DNA from: an uncultured Actinomycetes bacterium
Lineage (GTDB): Bacteria; Actinomycetota; Thermoleophilia; UBA2241
Length of the DNA: 64,000 bases
Assembly: GCA_963755025.1 (NCBI GenBank)
Contig: CAVWIH010000024.1
Location: 15,502 to 79,501, forward strand
Direction: 5' to 3'
The notes under the pieces: generated by a model
Seen by the model: only the letters and a program-made list of their open reading frames with translations
Databases searched by the model: none
Told to the model about the DNA's origin: nothing
Translations under genes and position numbers: made by a program
Part shown: in pieces, positions 1-62,724 of the stretch
Numbering within the stretch: the first letter of the stretch is position 1
Layout of the letters: each line of letters begins with the position of its first letter

Positions 1-1
1 C

Positions 2-919
2 GAGGTCATGTGGCAGATCGCCTCCGCGGTGCGGGGCGGCGCCCAGGCGCTCGTCGAGAAGCCTTACTTCGTCATGTACGGCCAGCCCAGCAGTCCGCTC
101 GAGCACCCGCGCGACAGCCTCGACAAGCTGCTCTTCTGCGCCGACAAGGGCATTCCCGCGATCTACTCGCCGGCGCCGCTGGCCGGCGCCACCGCGCCGA
201 TCACCGTGGCCGGGCACATCGCCCAGGGCACGGCCGAGTCGCTCTTTGGCCTCGTCATGCACCAGCTCCGCAACCCCGGCGCGCCGTTCCTGTTCGGCAT
301 CGGCCCGGCGGTCCTCGACATGGCCACCGCGCAGTCGTCGTACAACGCTCCCGAATACCTCATGACCTATCTCGGCGCCATCGAGATGGCGCGCTGGCTC
401 GACCTGCCGAACTGGGGCTACGGCGGCACCAGCGATTCGCAGCTGGTCGACGCGCAGGCCGGCATGGAAGCCGGCGAGCTCACCCTGCTCGCCATGATGG
501 CCGGCTCCAACTTGAACCACGACGTCGGCTACCTCGACTACGGCATGACCGGCGCGCTCGAGCTCGTCGTGATCGTCGACGAGTTCGTCGCCATGAACCG
601 CCGTCTGCTCGGCGGCATCACGGTCGACCGCGAGACCCTGGGGCTCGACGTGATCGCCGCGACCGGCCCCGGCGGCGACTTTCTGTCGACCAAGCACACC
701 GCCAAGCACATGCGCGCGGCGCAGTGGCGCCCGACGATCATGAACCGCAAGGGCTACGAGCGCTGGACCGAGAGCGACAGCCCCGACCTGCGTGAGGCGG
801 CGCGCCTGAAGGCGCAGCGCCTACTCGCCACGCACGTCGCACCGCCGGTCGCCGCCGACGTGGCCGCCACGATCGACGCGCTCGTCGAGGGCTTCGCGCC
901 GGCGGGTCGCCAGGGCTGA
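2..919 (+). CDS. Trimethylamine methyltransferase (MttB) family protein, 5'-partial, non-pyrrolysine
   Basis: Motifs GATAPITVAG, NPGAPFLFG, LPNWGYGGTSDSQLVDAQAG, HDVGYLD, GPGGDFL; frame open to the window start. Confidence 0.9.
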   Translation, partial: EVMWQIASAVRGGAQALVEKPYFVMYGQPSSPLEHPRDSLDKLLFCADKGIPAIYSPAPLAGATAPITVAGHIAQGTAESLFGLVMHQLRNPGAPFLFGIGPAVLDMATAQSSYNAPEYLMTYLGAIEMARWLDLPNWGYGGTSDSQLVDAQAGMEAGELTLLAMMAGSNLNHDVGYLDYGMTGALELVVIVDEFVAMNRRLLGGITVDRETLGLDVIAATGPGGDFLSTKHTAKHMRAAQWRPTIMNRKGYERWTESDSPDLREAARLKAQRLLATHVAPPVAADVAATIDALVEGFAPAGRQG

Positions 920-921
920 CC

Positions 922-2019
922 TTGAGCGCTCCGTCTCGACACGATGCGCCGGGGCCCGCGAGGGGCCCGGCGCCCGTGGCGCTCCACCCGGCCGCGCTCG
1001 GCCCGGAGTTGCGCGCGGCGCTGACCGGGCCGTGCGGCGCTCCCGAGCTCGCGCTGCCCTGGATCGACCGCTTCTTCGAGCCCGACGAGCTGCGCCTCGT
1101 CGCCGTGCTGGCGGCCGGTCCGCTTACGCTGCCGGCCGCCGCGTCGGCGCTTGGTCGCCCGCTGCCGCCCGAGTTCCTCGAGCGCGCCGTGCGTCGGGCG
1201 GTCATCGACCGCCCGACGCACGACACCGTCGCGCTGGCCGACTTTGCCTCGCGCTTCGAGGTCTGGACGCTCTTCGAAGGCTGGAAGGACCTGCCTCACG
1301 ATGTGCGACGCGCCTTGGCCGACTGGTCGCTCGCGCGTTACATCGAAGCCAAGCGCCCGCAGGTCGAGAGCCTGCTCGCGGGCGAGGCGCCGCAGCCCGG
1401 CCTCGAGAACGCCGAGTACCTGCTGCTGCCCGAAGCCGAGGCGCTGCTCGCCCGCGCTGCGCACGTCTACCTGTGGCCGTGCGACTGCCGCGCCGCCATG
1501 GAACGCTGCCGCAAACCGTCGCTCGTCTGCCTGCGCTTCAACAACGACCGCGGCCTGGGCTGGGAGATCTCGCACGAACGCGCCGTCGAGGTGCTGCGCG
1601 ATGCCGACCGCCACGGCCTCATGCACACCGGCGAGGTCGCCACTCCCGGCGAGCTCACGCCGATCACCGCCGGCGCCATCTGCAACTGCTGCGGCGACTG
1701 CTGCTTTCCGCAGCTCGCCGCCGACGAGCTCGGCGCCACGCGGGTCTGGCCGCGGGTACGCTACGTCGCCGAGCGCGACACGGCGACCTGCACGTCGTGC
1801 GCGCGCTGCGCGCGCCGTTGCCCGTTCGGGGCCTTCACGGTCGAGTCCGGTGCGCAGTCCGAAAGCGCCGCGCAGGCCGAAGGCGCCGCGCAGACCAAGG
1901 GCGCCGCGCGCCGGTCCGCGCCCGTCACGTTCCACCCCGAGCTCTGCCGCGGCTGCGGGCTCTGCGCGACCGGCTGCCCCGAAGGCGCCATCACCATGGC
2001 GCCGCTGCCCGGCGCCTGA
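922..2019 (+). CDS. 4Fe-4S dicluster protein with additional Cys motifs
   Basis: CTSCARCARRCP and CRGCGLCATGCP ferredoxin motifs, plus CDCR and CNCCGDCC; starts 2 bp after the MttB stop. Confidence 0.85.
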   Translation: MSAPSRHDAPGPARGPAPVALHPAALGPELRAALTGPCGAPELALPWIDRFFEPDELRLVAVLAAGPLTLPAAASALGRPLPPEFLERAVRRAVIDRPTHDTVALADFASRFEVWTLFEGWKDLPHDVRRALADWSLARYIEAKRPQVESLLAGEAPQPGLENAEYLLLPEAEALLARAAHVYLWPCDCRAAMERCRKPSLVCLRFNNDRGLGWEISHERAVEVLRDADRHGLMHTGEVATPGELTPITAGAICNCCGDCCFPQLAADELGATRVWPRVRYVAERDTATCTSCARCARRCPFGAFTVESGAQSESAAQAEGAAQTKGAARRSAPVTFHPELCRGCGLCATGCPEGAITMAPLPGA

Positions 2020-2160
2020 GGCCGCTCGGCCGGCGCGGTGCGGCGCGCCGCCCGCCTCGCCGCCGGCGGGCGTCGCTTCGCCGGCACTCTGCGGCGCACG
2101 CCTGCCGACCTGAACAGCTCGCGACGCTTCCGCGCCCCGCCGCCGGGCAATAAAGGTGGC

Positions 2161-3648
2161 ATGACGGTCCTTCTGAGCGGCGCGGCGCTGACTCTCGACG
2201 AGCTCGTGCGAGTGGCGCGCGGCGGCGAGGCCGTCGGGCTTGCGCCCGACGTCGCGCCGCGCATGGCGCGCTCGCGCGCGGCGGTCGACGCGGCGCTCGC
2301 GCGCGGCGACGCCGTCTACGGCCTCACGACGGGGGTGGGCGTGCTCAAGCGCGTGCCGCTGGCCGCCGACGAGGTGGTGCGCTTCAATCGCCGTCTGCTG
2401 CAGAACCACCGCGTCGCCCAGGGCGTGCCGGTGGCGCCCGACGTGGTGCGCGCCACCATGCTCCGCCTGGCCAACGGCTTCGCCGCCGGTCATGCCGGCG
2501 TGCGCTATGAACTGGCCCAGCGCCTGGTCGAGGCGCTCAACCGCGGCGTCTGCCCGGTGGTGCGCGAGCTGGGCTCGCTCGGCGAATCGGACCTGGCGCC
2601 GCTGGCCGACCTGGCGGCCGGCCTGTTCGGCGACCCCGACCTGGCTGCCGGCGAGGGGCTCGCCGTGCTCAACAACAACGCCTTCTCCACCGCCACGGCC
2701 GCCCTCGCCGTGCACGACGCGGGGCGCCTGCTCGACGCCGCCGACGCCGCCGGCGCGCTCAGCCTCGAGGCGTTCGCCGCCAACCTCACCATCCTGCACC
2801 CGGCGATCGTCGCGGCGCGGCCCGACAAAGGCCTCGCGCTGGCTGTCGGGCGACTGCGCCGCCTGCTCGACGGCAGCTACCTGTGGCGCGAAGGCGCCGC
2901 CCGCAACCTGCAGGACCCGCTCACCTTCCGCTCGCTCCCGGGGGTGCACGGCGCCTGCCACGACGCTCTGGCCTACGTGCGGCAGCGTCTGGCCGTGGAG
3001 CTGAACGCCGCCCAGGGGAACCCCCTGGTGGTGCCCGGCGAGCAGCGCCTGATCTCGGTGGCCAACTTCGAGGTGCTGGCGCTCGCCGCGGCGCTCGACC
3101 TTGCGCGCATCGCCCTGGCGCCGCTGCTGACGAGTGCCGACGAGCGCGTCGTCAAGCTCCTCGAGACGCCCTGGTCGGGGCTGCCCACCGGCCTTGCGGT
3201 GGCGCCCGGCACGGCGGAGAGCGGCCTCAGCATCTACGCGATCGCCGGCGAGGCCATGACGGCCGAGGCCCGCACGTTGGCGCAGCCGGTCTCGTTCGAG
3301 CTGGCGAGCAGCGCCGGCGCCGAGGGCATCGAGGACCGCGCCACGATGCTGCCGCTCGGCGCGCGCCGCCTCGCCGCCATGACCGGCCTCGGCGAGCGCA
3401 TCCTGGCCATCGAGCTGCTGGTGGCCGCCCAAGCGGTGGAGCTGCGCGGCAGCGGACCGCTGGGGCGCGGCACGCGGCGCGTGTTCGAAGAGGTGCGCGA
3501 GCGCGTGCCGTTCGTGGGTCAGGACGATCCCCTGCCGGCCGACCTGGACGGCCTGGTCGAGCTCATTCGCGGCGGCGCGCTCGCCGGTTCGATGGGTGTG
3601 GCCACGGCGCCGGCTTCGCCCGCGGCGCCCGTGTCGCGCGTGCCCTGA
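2161..3648 (+). CDS. Histidine/aromatic amino acid ammonia-lyase superfamily protein lacking the Ala-Ser-Gly MIO motif
   Basis: VYGLTTGVG, QDPLTFRS, GNPLV, GIED motifs; GSLGESDLAPL where HAL has GSVGASGDLAPL; ATG at 2161. Confidence 0.85.
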   Translation: MTVLLSGAALTLDELVRVARGGEAVGLAPDVAPRMARSRAAVDAALARGDAVYGLTTGVGVLKRVPLAADEVVRFNRRLLQNHRVAQGVPVAPDVVRATMLRLANGFAAGHAGVRYELAQRLVEALNRGVCPVVRELGSLGESDLAPLADLAAGLFGDPDLAAGEGLAVLNNNAFSTATAALAVHDAGRLLDAADAAGALSLEAFAANLTILHPAIVAARPDKGLALAVGRLRRLLDGSYLWREGAARNLQDPLTFRSLPGVHGACHDALAYVRQRLAVELNAAQGNPLVVPGEQRLISVANFEVLALAAALDLARIALAPLLTSADERVVKLLETPWSGLPTGLAVAPGTAESGLSIYAIAGEAMTAEARTLAQPVSFELASSAGAEGIEDRATMLPLGARRLAAMTGLGERILAIELLVAAQAVELRGSGPLGRGTRRVFEEVRERVPFVGQDDPLPADLDGLVELIRGGALAGSMGVATAPASPAAPVSRVP

Positions 3649-3712
3649 ACCGGGCTCGCCGACGATCGCGGCTCACGGCCGACGACCGCGGCCCAATGCC
3701 GCCGGGTCAGGG

Positions 3713-4012
3713 CTACCGATCGACCTCTGAGCGCTCTGGCAAGGCCGCGGCAGGTCGAGTGGCGGAAGACTGCGCCGCTGCAGGCGGCGCGCCGACAAGC
3801 TGCGCGCCGGCACGCGGCGCGGCGGCAAGCTGCGCGCCGACAAGCGGCGCGGCGCCAGACGGTGCGGCGGCATCGATCGGCAGTGACGGCAGTTCATCGT
3901 GGTTGCCGGGCAGCAACTCGACCAGCACCACGGCCGACACCACAAAGGCAATCGCCACGACGACCATCATCAGCCAGACCATGGGGTCGAGCTGCGACAG
4001 CAGGTGGACCAT
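3713..4012 (-). CDS. Small membrane protein with Ala/Pro-rich repeat tail
   Basis: GGAGG RBS before ATG 4012; one hydrophobic helix (VWLMMVVVAIAFVVSAVVLV). Confidence 0.55.
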   Translation of the reverse strand: MVHLLSQLDPMVWLMMVVVAIAFVVSAVVLVELLPGNHDELPSLPIDAAAPSGAAPLVGAQLAAAPRAGAQLVGAPPAAAQSSATRPAAALPERSEVDR

Positions 4013-4507
4013 GGGGTGTCCCTCCAGACGGCGTTTTCCCGGTGTCATCCTTCCCGTCGGGGCCGAGTCGTAACGAGAAGGTCGACCAGGGGGGCGGACG
4101 GTGCGGCACGACGCCTGGCGCGGCGCGTCACGCGCGTGGCACACCGCCGCATCGGCGCTGCAGGCACAGAGAGTTGTGTTGCATCGCCGGTCGTCGTAAC
4201 ATGCGCGCACACCGTCTCCACGTCGGATTCGGCACACCACGTCACTGTCGTTGTTCAGACGTTCCGGGGGAGAGACCGATGTCTGGCGCAGTACGGTCGC
4301 TCAGAGCCAATCGCCGCAGGGCCCGCGGGCCGGGCGTCCCTCCCTACGTCCTCACGCAAGACAGCACGAGCTTCGACTCCCACGCTCCCTGACGGCCCAC
4401 CGGCCGCCGACTGACACTCGGTCGCCGTCACCGTCACATCCGTTTTCTCTTTCGCGGCGCCGCCCCACCGGGCGCGTCGTCCTAGACGAATCCTTAGGAG
4501 ACATGAC

Positions 4508-5164
4508 ATGGGAGACAAGCTGACGCTACGGATGCTCTCCTCCGACGAGGTCGGCAAAGTGCGCGAGCAGTGCCTGCACCTGCTGTCCGAGATGGGCATG
4601 AAGATCGACCACGAAGCCGTCCTGCGCATACTCGCCGACGCCGGCGCGCAGGTCGACTTCGAGACCAGGGTCGTGCGCTTCCCGGCCGCCCTGGTCGAGT
4701 CGGCCATAAAGACGGTCCCCGGCGAGCTCACGGTCAAGGGCGCCGAGGAGCGTCACGACTGCAAGATCCCGCACCCCGACGGCCTGTTCTACTCCTGCAC
4801 GAACATCCAGAGCATGCTGCACCACGACCCCGACACCGGGCGCTTCGTCGACAACACGGCCCAGAAGTACGCCGAGTGGTGTCAGGTCGTCGAGCTCCTC
4901 GACCACGCCGACATCTGCGCCATTCAGACGCCCATGGACGTGCCGGCCGAGAGCGCCGAGGTGCACGCCCTCGCCATCCAGATGCAGAACACGACCAAGC
5001 CGCTCTGGATGCACGCCTTCAGCCGCGAGGCCGTACCCTTCATGTTCGAGCTCATGGTCGCCCGCGTGGGCAGCGTCGAGGCCCTGCGCGAGCGCAGCCT
5101 CGTCATCATCAACCCCGGCACCGTCTCGCCGTTCATCATCAAGGAGATGGACGCCGAGGAGATC
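4508..5164 (+). pseudogene. N-terminal ~220 aa of an MttB-family methyltransferase, truncated at a junction
   Basis: AGGAG RBS; LSSDEVGKVREQCLHLLSEMGMKI..GAQVD..VVRFP, QNTTKP, VSP; similarity ends at EEI. Confidence 0.8.
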
Positions 5165-5721
5165 ACGGTCGGCAGCAGCGAGTTGCGCAGCACGTGGGTG
5201 AAGAGCACGCGCCGCGGCGACAGGCCGTTCAGGTTGGCGGTGCGCACGTAGTCCATCTGCAGCACGTCGACGGTGCTCGATCGCGTCATGCGTACCACGT
5301 AGGCCAGGCTGGTGAGCGCCACGGTAATCGCCGGCAGCACGAGGTAAGGGAACGCCTGCGTGAAGCTCGAGTGCGGGTCGATCGCCGAGCTCGCCGGGAA
5401 CCAGTGCAGTTTCACGGCGAAGATCGAGATGAGGATGACGCCGCTCACGAACTCGGGCAGACCGATGAAGGCCAGCGAGCCTATGGAGATCGTCTGGTCG
5501 AGCCAGGTGTTTCGTCGCAGGGCGGCGATCATGCCCAGGAAGATGCCCAGCGGCACGTAGAAGGCAAAAGCCACCAGGGCGAGCATGAGGGAGTTGCGCA
5601 GCCGCTCGAGGATCACGCCGCGCACCGGCTCGTTCATGCTGACCGAGGTGCCCCAGTCGCCGCGGATGTAGCTCGAGACCCAGCGCTCGTACTGCGTGGG
5701 GATGGGCTTGTCGAGGCCGGC
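5161..5721 (-). pseudogene. Inverted internal segment of a DppB/OppB-type peptide ABC permease
   Basis: Minus strand reads GLDKPIPTQYERW..GDWGTS..RLRNSLML..LVLPAIT..MDYVRTANLNGLSPRRVLFTHVLRNSLLPTVI (EAA loop). Confidence 0.85.
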
Positions 5722-5928
5722 ATAGGCTGGCTCATCGGCGGCCTCATCATCACCGAGTCGGTCTACTCGTACCCGGGCATCGGCCGGCTGCTGCTCTTCG
5801 CCATCACCAACCGCGACCTCAAGCTGGTGCAGGCCACGGCGTTGCTGATCGTCATCATCTACGTGGTCGCCAACTTCGTCGCCGACATCATCTACGCGCT
5901 GCTGAACCCGCGCATCAGGTACCAGTAG
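5722..5928 (+). pseudogene. C-terminal segment of a DppB/OppB-type permease, probably the same gene
   Basis: IGWLIGGLIITESVYSYPGIGRLLLFAITNRDLKLVQ..ADIIYALLNPRIRYQ*. Confidence 0.85.
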
Positions 5929-6067
5929 GGATCAGTAGGGCGATGCCGGCGCGGCGTCGCCGCGCGGCCGGGACGCGCGGTCGCCGCGCGGCCGGGGACG
6001 CGCGGCGACGCGCGCTGTTGCGCGACGGCTATGATGTCGGGGTCGCCGTCGTCGCAAGGAGGGATTC

Positions 6068-7453
6068 GTGCTCAAGCACCCCCGCAACCCGAGGCGCGTG
6101 CAGCGTGACCTCGAGGTGCCGCCCATCTTCACCGCCGAGCTTTCGCGCGTGCCGCGCGACGAGCTGCCGGCGCGCGGCATGCCGCCCGACGCCGCCTACC
6201 AGATCATCCACGACGAGCTCATGCTCGACGGCAACGCCCGCCTGAACCTGGCGACCTTCGTGACGACCTGGATGGAGCCCCAGGCCGACAAGCTCATGGC
6301 TGAGACCTTCGACAAGAACATGATCGACAAAGACGAGTACCCGCAGACCGCCGAGCTCGAGCTGCGCTGCGTGAACATGCTCTCGCGCCTCTGGCACGCG
6401 CCGGCCGCCGACGAGGCCGTGGGCTGCTCGACCACTGGTTCGAGCGAGGCCTGCATGCTCGGCGGCCTCGCCCTCAAGCGCCGCTGGCAGAAGCGGCGGC
6501 GGGCAGCGGGCCTGCCCGCCGATCGCCCCAACATGGTGATGGGCGTCAACGCCCAGATCTGCTGGGACAAGTTCATGAACTACTGGGACGTCGAACCCCG
6601 CCTGGTGCCCATGGAGGGCGACCGCTACCACCTGGCGGCCGACGAGGCCGTCGCCCTGTGCGACGAGAACACGATCGGCATGGTCGTCATCATGGGCTCG
6701 ACCTACGACGGCAGCTACGAGCCGGTGGCCGACACCTGCCGGCTGCTCGACGAGCTCCAGGCGCGCACCGGCATCGACGTGCCGGTGCACGTCGACGGCG
6801 CCTCGGGGGCGATGGTCGCGCCCTTCATCGACCCCGACCTGCAGTGGGACTTCGCCCTGCCGCGCGTGGCCTCGATCAGCACCTCGGGACACAAGTACGG
6901 CCTGGTCTACCCCGGCGTGGGCTGGGTGGTGTGGCGCGACGCGCAGGCGCTGCCCGAGGAGCTCATCTTCTGGGTGAACTACCTGGGCGACGACATGCCG
7001 ACCTTCGCCCTGAACTTCTCGCGGCCGGGCTCGCAGATCGTCACCCAGTACTACAACTTCCTGCGCCTGGGCTTCGACGGCTACGCCAGGGTGCAGGGCT
7101 ACTCGCGCGACGTCGCCCTCTACCTGTCCGACAAGATCGCCGGCCTGGGGCCGTTCGAGCTGCTCACCCGCGGCGACGAGCTGCCCGTCTTTGCCTTCAC
7201 GCTGGCGGCCGACGTGAAGAACTTCAGCGTCTTCGACGTGGCCGACTGCCTGCGCGAGCGCGGCTGGCTCGTACCGGCCTACACGTTCCCCAAGAACCGC
7301 ACCGACCTGGCGGCGCTGCGCATCGTCGTGCGCCGCGGCTTCACGCACGACGTCGCCGACCTGCTGCTGGCCGACTTCGCCCGTCAGCTGCCACGCCTCG
7401 CCAGGCAGACGGCGCCGGCCAACGAGGGCTCTGCGTCATCCTTCCATCACTAG
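6068..7453 (+). CDS. gadB: Glutamate decarboxylase
   Basis: DELMLDGNARLNLATFVTTWME, KNMIDKDEYPQT, HVDGASG, STSGHKYGLVYPG (PLP Lys). Confidence 0.95.
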   Translation: MLKHPRNPRRVQRDLEVPPIFTAELSRVPRDELPARGMPPDAAYQIIHDELMLDGNARLNLATFVTTWMEPQADKLMAETFDKNMIDKDEYPQTAELELRCVNMLSRLWHAPAADEAVGCSTTGSSEACMLGGLALKRRWQKRRRAAGLPADRPNMVMGVNAQICWDKFMNYWDVEPRLVPMEGDRYHLAADEAVALCDENTIGMVVIMGSTYDGSYEPVADTCRLLDELQARTGIDVPVHVDGASGAMVAPFIDPDLQWDFALPRVASISTSGHKYGLVYPGVGWVVWRDAQALPEELIFWVNYLGDDMPTFALNFSRPGSQIVTQYYNFLRLGFDGYARVQGYSRDVALYLSDKIAGLGPFELLTRGDELPVFAFTLAADVKNFSVFDVADCLRERGWLVPAYTFPKNRTDLAALRIVVRRGFTHDVADLLLADFARQLPRLARQTAPANEGSASSFHH

Positions 7454-7572: not shown

Positions 7573-8952
7573 CTACCTCAGGCAGAACTCGTCGAGCTGA
7601 CGGCGCGTGACGTCGTCCAGGTCGTCGGGCGGCTCGTGGGCGGCGAGGCGGCGCTCCACCTCGGCGCGCGCCGCGGCGCGCACGTCGCCGTCGCCCAGGG
7701 CGCGCCAGCGCTCGGCGCTCTCGCGCACCAGGAACGTGGCGCGGTCGAGGTCACGGCCGTGGCGGCGCGTGTGCCCTTGACCCAGGTAGTCCCCGCCGGG
7801 GCCGACCGCGGCGATCACGTCGGTCGCCAGCGCCTCGGCGTCGGCGGCCGTCGGGGCGGCGGCGAGGCGCAGGGCGCAGATGAGCTCGTCGTCGAGCACG
7901 TACTTCTCGAGCGACAGCACGTTGAACGAGCTCAGGATGCCGGCGGCCTGAAAGAGAAAGTCGCCGCCGGCGTCGGCCGAGGCCGACAGTCCCATGGTCG
8001 ACTCGAGCAGCGCCTGGGCGTCGGGCACGTGCGAGTCGGTGACGGCTCCGCCCGCGCGCACCGGCAGTCCGGCGTGGTGGGCGAGGCTCACCGTCGCATT
8101 CGCCATCAGGGCGAACTCCGGTGTGCCGAAGTGGGCGGCGCCGGTGCGCATGCTCGACATCGTCGAGACGGCGCCGTAGATGAACGGCGAGCCCTCGCGC
8201 GCGGCCTGCCCCAGCACCAGCGCGGCGAGCACCTCGGCGTGCTGCACGGTCAGCGTGCCGGCCGGCGTCGCCGGGCCGGTCGCGCCGCCCATCACGCAGG
8301 CGGTCACGCAGGCGGGCTGACCGAGAGCGGCCCAGCGCCGCAGGATGCGCGCGGTCTCCACCGACAGCAGCAGCGGAGAGTTGGTGTTGAGCACGATCAG
8401 CGCGCGCGGAGTGTCGGCCCACTGCGCGCCGTAGAGGATCTCGTTCATGGCGATCGCCTCGTCGACGTCGGGCTCGAGCGACGCGGTCCACTCCATCGAT
8501 TTGTCGCTCAGCGTGAGGCGAGCGTGGTCGGAGCGCCGCGTGCGCTGCTCCTCGGGCAGGTCGAGCGGCTCGATGCAGTCGCTGTTGAAGTCGAGGCCCG
8601 GCGACAGATGGCCGAGCTTGACCGTCGCCTGCGCGTCGGCCAGGGTGCCGGGTCGCACCACGGCGCCGTCGAGTACGTAGGCTGGCCCCGAGCCGCTGCC
8701 GAACACCGGCTGACCATCGCCGAAGCGCAGGTCGCGCCCCGGGTTACGCCCGGTCAGGGTGAATGCCCTCGGTGTACCGGAGAGGGCGCGCTCGACGACC
8801 TCGCGCTCGATGAACACGCGGCGACCGTCGGCACGGGCTCCCACCGTCTTGAGCAGCGCGACGGAGTCGTCGTCCATGACGACCACGCCGGTCTGGGCCA
8901 GCACCCGCAGGGCGGCCTCGTGGATGGCGACGATGTCGGCGGGCGCGAACAT
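7573..8952 (-). CDS. MttB-family methyltransferase, non-pyrrolysine (start may lie slightly upstream)
   Basis: IHEAALRVLAQTGV, NTNSPL, MGGATGPATPAG, LPVRAGGAVTDSHVPDAQA, GPGGDYLGQGHT. Confidence 0.9.
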   Translation of the reverse strand: MFAPADIVAIHEAALRVLAQTGVVVMDDDSVALLKTVGARADGRRVFIEREVVERALSGTPRAFTLTGRNPGRDLRFGDGQPVFGSGSGPAYVLDGAVVRPGTLADAQATVKLGHLSPGLDFNSDCIEPLDLPEEQRTRRSDHARLTLSDKSMEWTASLEPDVDEAIAMNEILYGAQWADTPRALIVLNTNSPLLLSVETARILRRWAALGQPACVTACVMGGATGPATPAGTLTVQHAEVLAALVLGQAAREGSPFIYGAVSTMSSMRTGAAHFGTPEFALMANATVSLAHHAGLPVRAGGAVTDSHVPDAQALLESTMGLSASADAGGDFLFQAAGILSSFNVLSLEKYVLDDELICALRLAAAPTAADAEALATDVIAAVGPGGDYLGQGHTRRHGRDLDRATFLVRESAERWRALGDGDVRAAARAEVERRLAAHEPPDDLDDVTRRQLDEFCLR

Positions 8953-9363
8953 CAGCGGCTGCGCGCGGCGAAGGCCGGCGACCGAGGGGCTCGCGAGATG
9001 GGGACCGGCGGCCACAGGGCTCGCGGGGCGAGGGCCGGTGACCAAGGGGCTCGCGCGCGCGAGGGCGGTCTGAGCGTCGATCTGTCTCCCACTGTGCCGT
9101 CTCCTTGGTCGTGCCGTCAGATGCGTCGTGCGCGCCGCACACGCCGCAGCTCGTAGCATAGGCAATCGCGCGGCGCGTTGCTTCCGCACCGGCGCCTCCC
9201 CACGTGCCGCGCTCACGCGACCTGTGCGATCCCCGCGTGCGCGCTCACGCGCCTGTGCGATCTCCACGCGCCGCGCTTTCCGGCCGCTCGGCGCGGTTTG
9301 GGCGACCGGCGAAACCGTGCAGAACCAAACCGACACCCGGCCACGACGAAATGAGGACCCCAG

Positions 9364-47375: not shown

Positions 47376-48728
47376 CAGGCTACTGAAGATCGCCTCGCCT
47401 CAAGCTCTCCGAGAGCCTTCCGGAGGATGACCCTCGCCGCCTCGCGAACCTGCTAGTGTGCGGCCAGGCAGGCGACGGGGAGGGGCTCAGGATGCGCGGT
47501 GACGAGGAGCGGCAGGCGGGGTTCATCGTCATGACCACGCTCGAGGACGTGGTGCCCGACGATCATCCCCTGCGCGCCATCCGCGCCCTGGTCGACGTCG
47601 CCCTTGGGCAGATGAGTCCCGAGCTCGAGACTCTCTACGCCGAGCGCGGTCGCCCCTCGATCGCCCCCGAGTACCTGCTGCGCGCCCAGCTTGCCCAGAT
47701 CCTCTACGCCATCCCCTCCGAGCGCCGCCTGGTCGAACAGCTGCGCTATAACCTCCTGCTGCGCTGGTTCGTGGGCCTGCCCTTCGACGAGCCGGTCTGG
47801 CATCCGACGACCTTCACCAAGAACCGCGACCGCCTGCTCACGAGGGAGGTCGCCGAGGCCTTCTTCTCTGCCGTGCGCTGCCAGGCCGCCTCGCGCAAGC
47901 TGCTCTCCCGCGAGCACTTCTCCGTGGACGGCACGCTCCTTGAGGCGGCCGCCTCCTTGAAGAGCCTGCGGCCCCGCGAGGAGGGTGAAGATGGGGAGCC
48001 GCCGGCCGGCGGCGGCGGGCGCAACCGCAGCGTCGACTTCCACGGCGAGAAGCGCGGCAACGAGACGCACCGCTCGACGACCGACCCCGACTCACGCCTG
48101 GCCAAGAAGGGACGCGGCAAGGAGGCGCGTCTCTGCTACGCCGGCCACAGCCTCACCGAGAACCGCCACGGCCTGATCGTCGACTGCGAGCTGACTGCGG
48201 CCACCGGCAGCTGCGAGCGTGAGGCCGGCCTGCGGCTGCTCGCCCGTCAGCGGCGCCGCTCCGGCCGCGCTCGCCTGAGCGTAGGCGCCGACCGCGGCTA
48301 CGACACGGCCGGCTTCGTCGCCCGGGCTCGCGAGCTGCACATCACCCCGCACGTGGCCGCCAAGGACCGCTTCAGCGCCGTCGACGGCCGCACCACCCGC
48401 CACGCCGGCTACGCCACAAGCCAGCGTCGACGCAAGCTCGTCGAGGAGCCCTTCGGCTGGATGAAGACGGTCGGCGGCCTGCGCAAGCTGCGCCACCGCG
48501 GCGCGGCCAGGGTCTCGGCCATCTTCACCTTCGCCTGCGCGGCCTACAACCTGGTGCGCTTGCGGCGGTTGCTGGCGGAGCCGGCTCTGAGGTAGGGCCA
48601 GAGGCCCGGAAGGGCTCCCAAAGGGGCTGCCTTGCGGGGCTCGACAGCTCCAGAAACCACCTCATCCGTCTCGCCACGGCTCCTGGCTGCACGACACTCT
48701 CCGGAGGGCGCGCTTGTTCAGCAGCCTG
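47376..48728 (+). mobile_element. IS5-family element, copy 1 (1353 bp), CTAG on both sides
   Basis: IRs CAGGCTACTGAA / TTCAGCAGCCTG; CTAG at 47372 and 48729. Confidence 0.92.
47492..48595 (+). CDS. IS5-family DDE transposase
   Basis: DHPLRAIR, GRPSIAPE, SERRL, FSVDGT, GADRGYD, RKLVEEPFGW. Confidence 0.93.
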   Translation: MRGDEERQAGFIVMTTLEDVVPDDHPLRAIRALVDVALGQMSPELETLYAERGRPSIAPEYLLRAQLAQILYAIPSERRLVEQLRYNLLLRWFVGLPFDEPVWHPTTFTKNRDRLLTREVAEAFFSAVRCQAASRKLLSREHFSVDGTLLEAAASLKSLRPREEGEDGEPPAGGGGRNRSVDFHGEKRGNETHRSTTDPDSRLAKKGRGKEARLCYAGHSLTENRHGLIVDCELTAATGSCEREAGLRLLARQRRRSGRARLSVGADRGYDTAGFVARARELHITPHVAAKDRFSAVDGRTTRHAGYATSQRRRKLVEEPFGWMKTVGGLRKLRHRGAARVSAIFTFACAAYNLVRLRRLLAEPALR

Positions 48729-61371: not shown

Positions 61372-62724
61372 CAGGCTGCTGAACAAGCGCGCCCTCCGGA
61401 GAGTGTCGTGCAGCCAGGAGCCGTGGCGAGACGGATGAGGTGGTTTCTGGAGCTGTCGAGCCCCGCAAGGCAGCCCCTTTGGGAGCCCTTCCGGGCCTCT
61501 GGCCCTACCTCAGAGCCGGCTCCGCCAGCAACCGCCGCAAGCGCACCAGGTTGTAGGCCGCGCAGGCGAAGGTGAAGATGGCCGAGACCCTGGCCGCGCC
61601 GCGGTGGCGCAGCTTGCGCAGGCCGCCGACCGTCTTCATCCAGCCGAAGGGCTCCTCGACGAGCTTGCGTCGACGCTGGCTTGTGGCGTAGCCGGCGTGG
61701 CGGGTGGTGCGGCCGTCGACGGCGCTGAAGCGGTCCTTGGCGGCCACGTGCGGGGTGATGTGCAGCTCGCGAGCCCGGGCGACGAAGCCGGCCGTGTCGT
61801 AGCCGCGGTCGGCGCCTACGCTCAGGCGAGCGCGGCCGGAGCGGCGCCGCTGACGGGCGAGCAGCCGCAGGCCGGCCTCACGCTCGCAGCTGCCGGTGGC
61901 CGCAGTCAGCTCGCAGTCGACGATCAGGCCGTGGCGGTTCTCGGTGAGGCTGTGGCCGGCGTAGCAGAGACGCGCCTCCTTGCCGCGTCCCTTCTTGGCC
62001 AGGCGTGAGTCGGGGTCGGTCGTCGAGCGGTGCGTCTCGTTGCCGCGCTTCTCGCCGTGGAAGTCGACGCTGCGGTTGCGCCCGCCGCCGCCGGCCGGCG
62101 GCTCCCCATCTTCACCCTCCTCGCGGGGCCGCAGGCTCTTCAAGGAGGCGGCCGCCTCAAGGAGCGTGCCGTCCACGGAGAAGTGCTCGCGGGAGAGCAG
62201 CTTGCGCGAGGCGGCCTGGCAGCGCACGGCAGAGAAGAAGGCCTCGGCGACCTCCCTCGTGAGCAGGCGGTCGCGGTTCTTGGTGAAGGTCGTCGGATGC
62301 CAGACCGGCTCGTCGAAGGGCAGGCCCACGAACCAGCGCAGCAGGAGGTTATAGCGCAGCTGTTCGACCAGGCGGCGCTCGGAGGGGATGGCGTAGAGGA
62401 TCTGGGCAAGCTGGGCGCGCAGCAGGTACTCGGGGGCGATCGAGGGGCGACCGCGCTCGGCGTAGAGAGTCTCGAGCTCGGGACTCATCTGCCCAAGGGC
62501 GACGTCGACCAGGGCGCGGATGGCGCGCAGGGGATGATCGTCGGGCACCACGTCCTCGAGCGTGGTCATGACGATGAACCCCGCCTGCCGCTCCTCGTCA
62601 CCGCGCATCCTGAGCCCCTCCCCGTCGCCTGCCTGGCCGCACACTAGCAGGTTCGCGAGGCGGCGAGGGTCATCCTCCGGAAGGCTCTCGGAGAGCTTGA
62701 GGCGAGGCGATCTTCAGCAGCCTG
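61372..62724 (-). mobile_element. IS5-family element, copy 2 (1353 bp), CTAG target duplication
   Basis: Reverse complement of 47376-48728; CTAG at 61368 and 62725. Confidence 0.95.
61505..62608 (-). CDS. IS5-family DDE transposase
   Basis: Protein sequence identical to 47492-48595 in the ORF track. Confidence 0.93.
   Translation of the reverse strand: MRGDEERQAGFIVMTTLEDVVPDDHPLRAIRALVDVALGQMSPELETLYAERGRPSIAPEYLLRAQLAQILYAIPSERRLVEQLRYNLLLRWFVGLPFDEPVWHPTTFTKNRDRLLTREVAEAFFSAVRCQAASRKLLSREHFSVDGTLLEAAASLKSLRPREEGEDGEPPAGGGGRNRSVDFHGEKRGNETHRSTTDPDSRLAKKGRGKEARLCYAGHSLTENRHGLIVDCELTAATGSCEREAGLRLLARQRRRSGRARLSVGADRGYDTAGFVARARELHITPHVAAKDRFSAVDGRTTRHAGYATSQRRRKLVEEPFGWMKTVGGLRKLRHRGAARVSAIFTFACAAYNLVRLRRLLAEPALR

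Follow-up and report, generated by a model that had tools for sequence, protein, structure and literature searches.

Histidine betaine trimethylammonia-lyases, of the kind of HBTL (Swoo_3913) of Shewanella woodyi and SO_3299 of S. oneidensis, and ergothionase, in which Lys384 is essential for thiolate binding, have been described in two preprints (bioRxiv 10.1101/2025.08.13.670108 and 10.64898/2026.04.22.720169). The lyase that concerns us here is encoded near the start of a 64,000-nucleotide stretch of contig CAVWIH010000024.1, the whole of which we call the window, in the genome of an actinobacterium of peat soil (G000; 3.37 Mb, 84% complete). It follows, on the same strand, genes for an MttB-family methyltransferase (MttB_A) and for an Fe-S protein, in the order that the original prediction had given (Table 1; coordinates are those of the window unless prefixed by a locus or by a G000 contig such as C24). 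We propose, with a probability of about one half, that these three genes constitute an operon that serves to break down a betaine derived from histidine, hercynine (N-alpha-trimethylhistidine) being the likeliest.

The window's lyase resembles the two Shewanella enzymes in having the fold of histidine ammonia-lyase (HAL), in lacking the Ala-Ser-Gly triad, and in keeping the catalytic Tyr, the Gln/Arg/Asn set and the His/Glu pair. It likewise carries a neutral residue at the position of ergothionase Lys384, and its predicted products are of the same type, a urocanate-type compound and trimethylamine. The two Shewanella proteins work in the periplasm, bear signal peptides and support anaerobic respiration by their coupling to urocanate-reductase flavocytochromes, whereas the window's lyase lacks a leader and lies beside a corrinoid methyltransferase. 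Counting from published residue numbers only, 28 residues separate the Lys384 position from the conserved Glu in the Shewanella enzymes and ergothionase, against 30 in the window's protein.

On the methyltransferase side, MtpB, MtcB and MtyB are further non-pyrrolysine (non-Pyl) quaternary-amine methyltransferases of the MttB superfamily. The closest solved relatives of MttB_A are the MtgB-type glycine betaine methyltransferases (2qne and 9yce), with which it shares the PF06253 fold and the absence of an amber codon. Unlike them—the match reaches only about 211 bits—it belongs to an actinobacterial subfamily found beside HutH, MIO-less lyases (those without the 4-methylideneimidazole-5-one cofactor, MIO) and hut genes. 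As in the canonical Hut pathway, the predicted urocanate would feed the HutU-HutI-FTCD route, which G000 encodes; in contrast to that pathway, the entry enzyme is not HutH and the predicted entry substrate is methylated. A full-text search, with most subscription journals outside its reach, found no published account linking MttB with hercynine, with histidine betaine and a corrinoid, with HAL or with ergothioneine, and no report of MttB-superfamily activity on N-methylated histidine. New here are relatives of MttB_A and of the Fe-S protein inside complete hut clusters of a sister family, and MttB_A-type genes beside HutH in a sister genus.

A lyase of the MIO-less branch of the HAL superfamily

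The lyase matches PF00221 at 371.3 bits (cut-off 27.3), in two stretches that are split at the MIO region, and reaches 318.7 bits against the NCBIfam hutH equivalog TIGR01225, whose cut-off is 539.15. Where HAL and phenylalanine ammonia-lyase (PAL) read G-S-x-G-Ala-Ser-Gly-D-L-A-P, its translation gives GSLGESDLAP, just as first read from the DNA, with Glu142-Ser143 (true numbering) standing at the Ala-Ser-Gly position. Having no MIO-forming triad and scoring under the equivalog cut-off, it falls outside canonical HutH. We aligned 131 sequences: the query, 120 database homologs, nine homologs from genome loci and the HutH of G000. All but two share a shortened motif without Ala-Ser-Gly, G-S-x-G-[Q/E/other]-[S/G/A]-D-L, one residue below that of HAL; the two exceptions are G000's own HutH (GASGD) and one odd paralog.

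Assembled contigs of other sequencing runs bear on the same site. DNA contigs from two runs of two studies span it and show 0 differences (X1 record 7, 2287-2619; X2 record 21, 2542-2692), although run X1 may be the source sample, and contigs from RNA libraries of two runs of one study (X19 record 12 and X20 record 26) match exactly over 2456-2941. Since 129 of the 131 sequences share the motif and the independent contigs are identical, we reject a sequencing error, which the original prediction had named as a way in which it might fail. The RNA-library match is at most a weak sign of lyase expression, because DNA can occur in such libraries; contigs of substantial length from these libraries are confined to parts of the lyase gene, the MttB_A and Fe-S genes being matched only by pieces of 20-25 nt with some bins uncovered.

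The catalytic Tyr loop (VYGLTTGVG) is kept, as had been claimed, and its Tyr53 recurs in 127 of the 129 relatives and His83 in 125, while Gln251, Arg257, Asn287 and Glu391 are invariant in all 129, down to identities of about 54%. By homology, Tyr53 would serve as the beta-proton base, His83 and Glu391 correspond to the imidazole ligands of HAL, and Gln251, Arg257 and Asn287 would bind the carboxylate. Loss of the triad with retention of the Tyr, Gln/Arg/Asn and His/Glu positions is the residue pattern that the two Bertsova preprints give for MIO-independent trimethylammonia-lyases. This conservation speaks to whether the protein could have lost its catalysis and act in binding or regulation instead, or be the product of a decaying gene, as the loss of the family's cofactor and the several frameshifted genes nearby in the assembly might indicate. 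An open frame of 495 codons, the retention of catalytic and binding residues just described, a large clade (see below) and the presence of the sequence in RNA-library contigs all argue to the contrary, and we give a dead or decaying enzyme hardly any credence.

A homolog search over 1.84 billion cluster representatives returned 1228 proteins at E <= 1e-30, and a tree was built from 95 full-length rows after 11 broken or aberrant rows had been left out. In this tree the query groups with MIO-less representatives that lack the Lys, in a clade numbering 27 of them at the 50% clustering level (support 99). A separate 54-row group (support 99) unites a 26-row clade (support 93), with Lys in 21 rows, and the canonical MIO clade (support 100); several further MIO-less clades occur in the tree. 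By its sequence, then, the lyase belongs among the MIO-less enzymes of the HAL superfamily, in agreement with the original prediction, and the comparison with ergothionase and HutH proposed there places it outside both of their clades rather than with canonical HutH.

Ergothioneine, one of the substrates first suggested, would make the enzyme an ergothionase releasing thiourocanate and trimethylamine, as in Treponema denticola or Burkholderia. The solved ergothionase Td_ETL (6s7j) is nominally the best structural match (197 bits), and the two proteins share the absence of MIO, a G-E-x-D segment one residue shorter than in HAL, Leu at the HAL Tyr280 position (Leu254 in the lyase) and an insertion before the conserved Glu. 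However, the HAL structure 6v6h scores an equal 197 bits, whereas P0238, a member of the Lys clade, reaches 422 bits against 6s7j. The Lys384 position is Ile361 in the lyase, with no Lys close by; across its clade this position holds Val, Ile, His or Asn, and Lys in no member. With no Lys384 equivalent and a clade separate from the Lys clade, the ergothionase identity is rejected and ergothioneine is a very improbable substrate.

A further paralog deserves mention: 4.4 kb from a query-family MIO-less lyase in another genome (L034 3339-4889, G338) lies a HAL-family gene that reads GIGCAGEV at the MIO site and is neither canonical nor of the query type.

The MttB and Fe-S proteins

MttB_A matches PF06253 at 198 bits over its window part and at 274.6 bits over the complete gene, with no in-frame stops; against the equivalog of Pyl trimethylamine methyltransferases, the window's 305-residue fragment alone scores 253.5 bits, the cut-off being 525. 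These sequence features mark it as a non-Pyl member of the MttB superfamily, which bears out the original assignment. In a sample of 201 genomes of the class, its subfamily has 83 members in 37 genomes. Another paralog in the window, MttB_B, is the best match in G000 (45% and 42%, tblastn) to the second and third MttBs of the sister-family hut-MttB clusters described below, and its position is conserved in the relatives L010 and L014.

Elsewhere, an MR/MLE enolase-superfamily gene stands directly before an MttB_A-subfamily paralog (G000:C37:10463-13063, locus L163; L078 18378-19505). The MR/MLE enolase kind includes betaine epimerases, for example 4-hydroxyproline betaine 2-epimerase. This arrangement suggests that each MttB_A paralog is paired with a betaine-specific accessory enzyme.

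The Fe-S protein combines an N-terminal region of about 260 residues, bearing two invariant Cys groups (CxCx6Cx6C and CxCCxxCC), with a C-terminal 2x[4Fe-4S] ferredoxin domain that has two CxxCxxCxxxC motifs. Among 43 homologs, Cys is invariant at 187, 189, 196, 203, 254, 256, 257, 260, 261, 290-300 and 342-352. Fer4-type Pfam matches are confined to residues 285-360. Searches of Pfam, NCBIfam and PDB profiles found no family match for the N-terminal 260 residues, only the ferredoxin part being recognized; in the ESM Atlas the whole protein led to unnamed Fer4 clusters, and residues 30-275 gave a best score of 0.78 and no lead. A RamA/RACo activase identity is rejected, since the matches are of Fer4 type only and PF14574 occurs at two other places in the genome. 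The Fe-S family is present in 27 of the 35 sampled genomes of G000's family (f1) and 6 of 35 of the sister family (f3), and in no other family of the class sample. At 11 of 29 Fe-S loci the gene immediately upstream, in the same orientation, encodes an MttB, and five of these loci continue with a lyase gene. We take the Fe-S protein to be a probable accessory to the MttB module, and guess at a role in low-potential electron transfer.

Linkage of the three genes

Among ten loci from named metagenome-assembled genomes (MAGs; related ones include 'bog_752'), MttB adjoins the lyase in all eight with a lyase identity of at least 79%, with the Fe-S gene between them in seven. The Fe-S gene is lost in L009, where the MttB-lyase adjacency survives, and is frameshifted in L006; the other two, more distant loci have no cognate MttB. 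In the class sample, the lyase family occurs in 33 genomes (16 of 35 in f1, 13 of 32 in a further family, f8, and none of 35 in f3). The trio of MttB, Fe-S protein and lyase recurs in genera g1, g2 and g251, with identities falling to 63% for the lyase, 50% for the Fe-S protein and 63% for MttB. The genes on either side of the unit in G412, G446 and G491 have their matches on other contigs of G000; these different flanks imply that the unit has moved or been kept in differing contexts. Hence, the three genes travel as a unit across three genera with different flanks.

Association of the MttB subfamily with histidine utilization

A tie to histidine comes from the sister family f3, reached by following homologs of the Fe-S protein. 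In six of its genomes, spanning four genera, a gene of the MttB_A subfamily (57-63% identical) is followed after 14-73 nt by a canonical HutH, and five of these six loci also contain an Fe-S homolog (44-53%), HutI and FTCD as well as, if the contig extends far enough, genes for a pterin methyltransferase and a GntR/UTRA regulator; HutU was recognized in one of them. The cluster of G547 encodes a corrinoid protein, MttB_A, a canonical HutH (GASGD, Tyr280), two more MttBs and an Fe-S protein (53%), and then a HutI-like amidohydrolase, a formiminotransferase, a cyclodeaminase, a pterin-binding methyltransferase, a GntR/UTRA regulator and a second corrinoid protein. Its MttB_A is 63% identical to that of the window and the reciprocal best match in G000. 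G089 and G414 have the same kind of gene content plus urocanase, G557 and G562 show it as far as their contigs or the examined stretches extend, and in G537 MttB_A and HutH stand at the contig end. Complete hut clusters with relatives of the MttB and Fe-S proteins comprise HutH, HutU, HutI, formiminotransferase, HutC, a corrinoid protein and a pterin methyltransferase.

Within the window's own family, six genomes of genus g2 carry a canonical HutH oriented divergently, upstream of arrays of the form MttB_A-MttB_A-MttB2. One of them, G456, has after its array first an octopine-dehydrogenase-like gene and then an MIO-less lyase. Altogether, a HAL-family gene lies within 3.2 kb of 21 of the 83 MttB_A-subfamily members, in 19 of the 37 genomes (counting G446). 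The chance expectation is below one such case, a rough figure that assumes 1-3 HAL genes per genome of about 3 Mb and takes no account of the relatedness of the genomes. The 21 cases fall into three MttB_A clades: that of f3 with HutH downstream, that of g2 with divergent HutH, and that of the window with the Fe-S protein and MIO-less lyase. The presence of relatives of MttB and of the Fe-S protein in hut clusters and beside HutH therefore ties this MttB subfamily to N-methylated histidine. In this respect the original prediction of a methylated amino acid as substrate gains independent support for a histidine-derived betaine, while its ergothioneine option has become unlikely.

Two further gene associations were seen in these clusters. 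The gene between the MttB array and the MIO-less lyase of G456 is octopine/nopaline-dehydrogenase-like (L197 330-1490), and the hut-MttB cluster of genus g8 is headed by an aldehyde:ferredoxin oxidoreductase gene (AFOR_N + AFOR_C) and permease genes for a transporter of the ATP-binding cassette (ABC) type (L074 15717-17642 in G089, and the same place in L075).

Proposed pathway

The observed sequence features, phylogeny, synteny and gene content lead us to predict the substrate, the products and a division of work between MttB and lyase. Hercynine would be taken up from the environment and cleaved by the lyase, acting as a cytoplasmic MIO-independent trimethylammonia-lyase: Tyr53 would abstract the beta-proton and the permanently charged trimethylammonium would depart without a cofactor, yielding urocanate and trimethylamine. 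The former would enter the HutU-HutI-formiminotransferase route of G000 and the latter would be demethylated by its pyrrolysine-containing MttB paralogs. The adjacent non-Pyl MttB would be a betaine:corrinoid methyltransferase, from a subfamily dedicated to N-methylated histidine, that shares the substrate pool of the lyase and takes a methyl group from it directly. Its corrinoid proteins, pterin methyltransferase and RACo activases would come from genes elsewhere in G000, and the Fe-S protein would be an accessory of this module.

The gene content of G000 fits such a scheme. It has a canonical HutH on C30, HutU-HutI-FTCD at C17:111936-115817, PylS (277.8 bits), PylD and five MttB genes that each contain one TAG in frame; its Pyl-related genes lie on contigs C10, C14, C16, C21 and C34 and point to pyrrolysine-dependent trimethylamine methyltransferases in an actinobacterium. 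Hence, G000 is predicted to be able to use both urocanate and trimethylamine. There are also 17 B12-binding matches, one Pterin_bind homolog (C19) and two RACo activases (PF14574), none of them in the operon. PylS is found in 32 of the 35 genomes of G000's family; as it occurs in nearly all of f1 and in five of the seven MttB_A-bearing f3 genomes, it was rejected as a discriminator between lyase-type and HutH-type clusters. EgtD was not found in G000, an 84% complete assembly, so the substrate is probably exogenous. According to a study of a permafrost mire, genus Bog-752 is among its most active bacterial methylotrophs, and Actinobacteriota of that mire express Pyl mttB and mtbB (PMC10805028).

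The original prediction had suggested that elimination may be coupled to methyl transfer. Taken as the lyase product becoming the substrate of MttB, this coupling is not supported, as a non-Pyl MttB is not expected to use trimethylamine. In f8, 13 of 32 genomes have the lyase family, while MttB_A, the Fe-S protein and PylS each occur in none; it follows that the lyase substrate needs no prior demethylation, and this distribution argues for an environmental betaine rather than an MttB product. It is more likely that lyase and MttB share a substrate class.

Among the metabolites of fungi and actinobacteria, hercynine and ergothioneine are abundant, and their fate in anoxic soils is, to our knowledge, hardly known. 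A corrinoid-dependent hercynine pathway, if true, would extend the MttB superfamily to a new class of substrates and would mean a new peat source of trimethylamine and methyl groups, which would indirectly supply methane precursors. The use of an MIO-less and of a canonical MIO lyase at the same pathway position in sister lineages would then constitute a natural experiment. A more sweeping claim is that the MttB superfamily has a hercynine branch and soil and peat Actinomycetota an undescribed corrinoid-dependent hercynine route, in which two or three MttBs and a dedicated four-cluster Fe-S protein strip N-methyl groups for canonical HutH and its co-clustered Hut pathway in some lineages, while in the window's lineage a new MIO-less clade replaced HutH and eliminates a methylated amine that Pyl methyltransferases harvest, all methyls and the skeleton being used. 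All of these parts together we advance only tentatively, below even odds.

Evidence against the proposal and alternative readings

Several observations weigh against the hercynine proposal. Genes for a corrinoid protein, MT2 or a transporter are missing from the operon itself. A quaternary amine is the expected requirement of either enzyme, and thus in one pathway the two would compete rather than act in sequence; why both should be kept in one operon is left unexplained by the proposal. The lyase clade, like the MttB_A subfamily, has no placeable characterized member. In all 22 sequences at 70% identity or more, the trio-clade lyases have Ile, Met or Val at 358, where the rest of the family has Glu or Gln, and Gly or Ala at 386, where the rest has His; these residues lie in the pocket region and may mean a different substrate. 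The three HAL-adjacent MttB_A clades are not united as an exclusive clade in the tree, and some paralogous clades have other partners, such as an MR/MLE enolase-type protein; with several such clades, substrate identity is not simply transferable between them.

The linkage, too, has limits. The trio occurs at only 6 of 29 lyase loci of other genomes in the class sample (four in g1, one in g251 and one in g2); a different MttB paralog lies within 1.5 kb at three, and no MttB of any kind within that distance at 20. G525, of the same genus, has an MttB ortholog (80%) with neither Fe-S gene nor lyase beside it, G491 has MttB and the Fe-S gene but the lyase nowhere in its genome, and G530 has a 73%-identical ES-type lyase unlinked to either. 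The MttB-lyase link is thus lineage-restricted and not a property of the lyase family: the neighborhood conservation that the original prediction had proposed to check holds in the close relatives and in three genera, and fails across the class sample and in f8.

These counts bear on another explanation, that the genes are together without sharing a substrate, merely because the contig is an island of betaine genes; the lyase would then cleave some betaine, possibly not derived from histidine, and MttB would demethylate an unrelated quaternary amine. G000 has 34 MTTB matches, several of them on C24, and on a contig so rich in MttB genes adjacency alone is weak evidence. The lyase loci without a nearby MttB and the other partners of MttB_A clades would fit this as well, as would the neighbors of the wider lyase family, among which no conserved neighborhood was found: they range over an Opp-type ABC transporter, IclR, the arginase family, hydantoinase B, amidohydrolases and M20 peptidase. 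Set against it are the retention of the trio in three genera with different flanks, an MttB-lyase adjacency that outlasts the Fe-S gene in L009, the recurrence of HAL-family genes beside the MttB_A subfamily in three clades, and the conserved imidazole-binding His and Glu of the lyase; we regard such co-location as unlikely.

The presence of both enzymes in one operon would be explained if they acted in sequence, with MttB removing one methyl group from hercynine and the lyase then eliminating dimethylamine from N-alpha,N-alpha-dimethylhistidine to give urocanate. The lyase would thereby substitute for the two further MttBs and the canonical HutH of the sister lineages. Clusters with HutH usually have three MttB paralogs (G547, G557, G562 and the g2 arrays), the window one MttB and a lyase, and the distinctive residues 358 and 386 of the trio-clade lyases would accord with a changed substrate. 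G000 also has the Pyl machinery, and expression of Pyl mtbB has been reported for related Actinobacteriota (PMC10805028). On the other hand, published MIO-less lyases act on trimethylammonium substrates only, a strict requirement among the characterized enzymes according to a preprint that cites the ergothionase work (bioRxiv 10.64898/2026.04.22.720169). A protonated dimethylammonium has an N-H that the catalytic base could remove, and the distribution of the lyase family in f8, apart from MttB_A, implies that its ancestral substrate was not an MttB product. A sequential pathway accordingly strikes us as improbable, and we retain the hercynine proposal, in which both enzymes draw on one pool.

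Gene layout and neighboring genes

The complete MttB_A gene spans G000:C24:14960-16420 (486 aa), starting 541 nt left of the window, and ends with TGA at 917-919. The gaps in the three-gene unit are 2-56 nt and then 141 nt, and the lyase most likely starts at its ATG, which has an AAGGTGG ribosome-binding site 5 nt before it. A sequence scan of window positions 1-6100 found no promoter-like or terminator-like sites, and an Rfam search of 801 nt upstream of MttB_A found no riboswitch, only a tRNA-Sec.

Table 1. Coordinates of the methyltransferase, Fe-S protein and lyase genes in the window
Feature	Position	Strand	Basis
MttB_A, non-pyrrolysine MttB-family methyltransferase, 3' 305 codons	1..919	+	PF06253
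Fe-S protein, 365 aa (TTG 922) or 347 aa (GTG 976)	922..2019	+	Fer4-type Pfam matches
MIO-less HAL-superfamily lyase, 495 aa; predicted histidine-betaine (hercynine-type) trimethylammonia-lyase (start ATG 2161)	2161..3648	+	PF00221
GSLGESDLAP, MIO-site segment with Glu-Ser for Ala-Ser-Gly, one residue shorter	2572..2601	+	translation
Second MttB paralog, N-terminal fragment of about 220 codons	4508..5164	+	PF06253 positions 31-234 only
Third MttB paralog, MttB_B	7573..8997	-	PF06253, 348.8 bits

The tRNA-Sec lies at L004 14507-14604 (G000:C24), about 900 nt left of the window and 355 nt upstream of the MttB_A start; it scores 72.8 bits in Rfam, and ARAGORN reads its anticodon as TCA. Selenocysteine in MttB_A orthologs is rejected, as the TGA codons flagged were terminal stops read through, or frameshifts. 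Immediately before the tRNA gene are a frameshifted phage-type integrase and remnants of a restriction methylase, which implies that an integrated element abuts the operon.

Downstream of the lyase, positions 4415-5931 hold the MttB fragment of about 220 codons and then, to about 5931, parts of a gene for a DppB-like ABC permease, which lie on the two strands. The relative L005 has a full-length MttB where the window has the fragment, and in L010 the stretch 4224-6031 is absent; this looks like local rearrangement or decay, and the stretch is probably a degraded, non-functional context. At 6068-7453 (+) follows a gene for a pyridoxal-dependent, glutamate-decarboxylase-like enzyme (PF00282, 243.7 bits), which in L010 and L014 comes straight after the lyase. 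Histidine breakdown ends in glutamate, and the proximity of this gene may or may not be a coincidence. Farther along, an IS5-like DDE transposase gene (402 aa) is present twice, at 47387-48595 (+) and 61505-62713 (-), with the same Pfam scores; the copies are inverted relative to each other and bracket about 13 kb, which may be a composite transposon.

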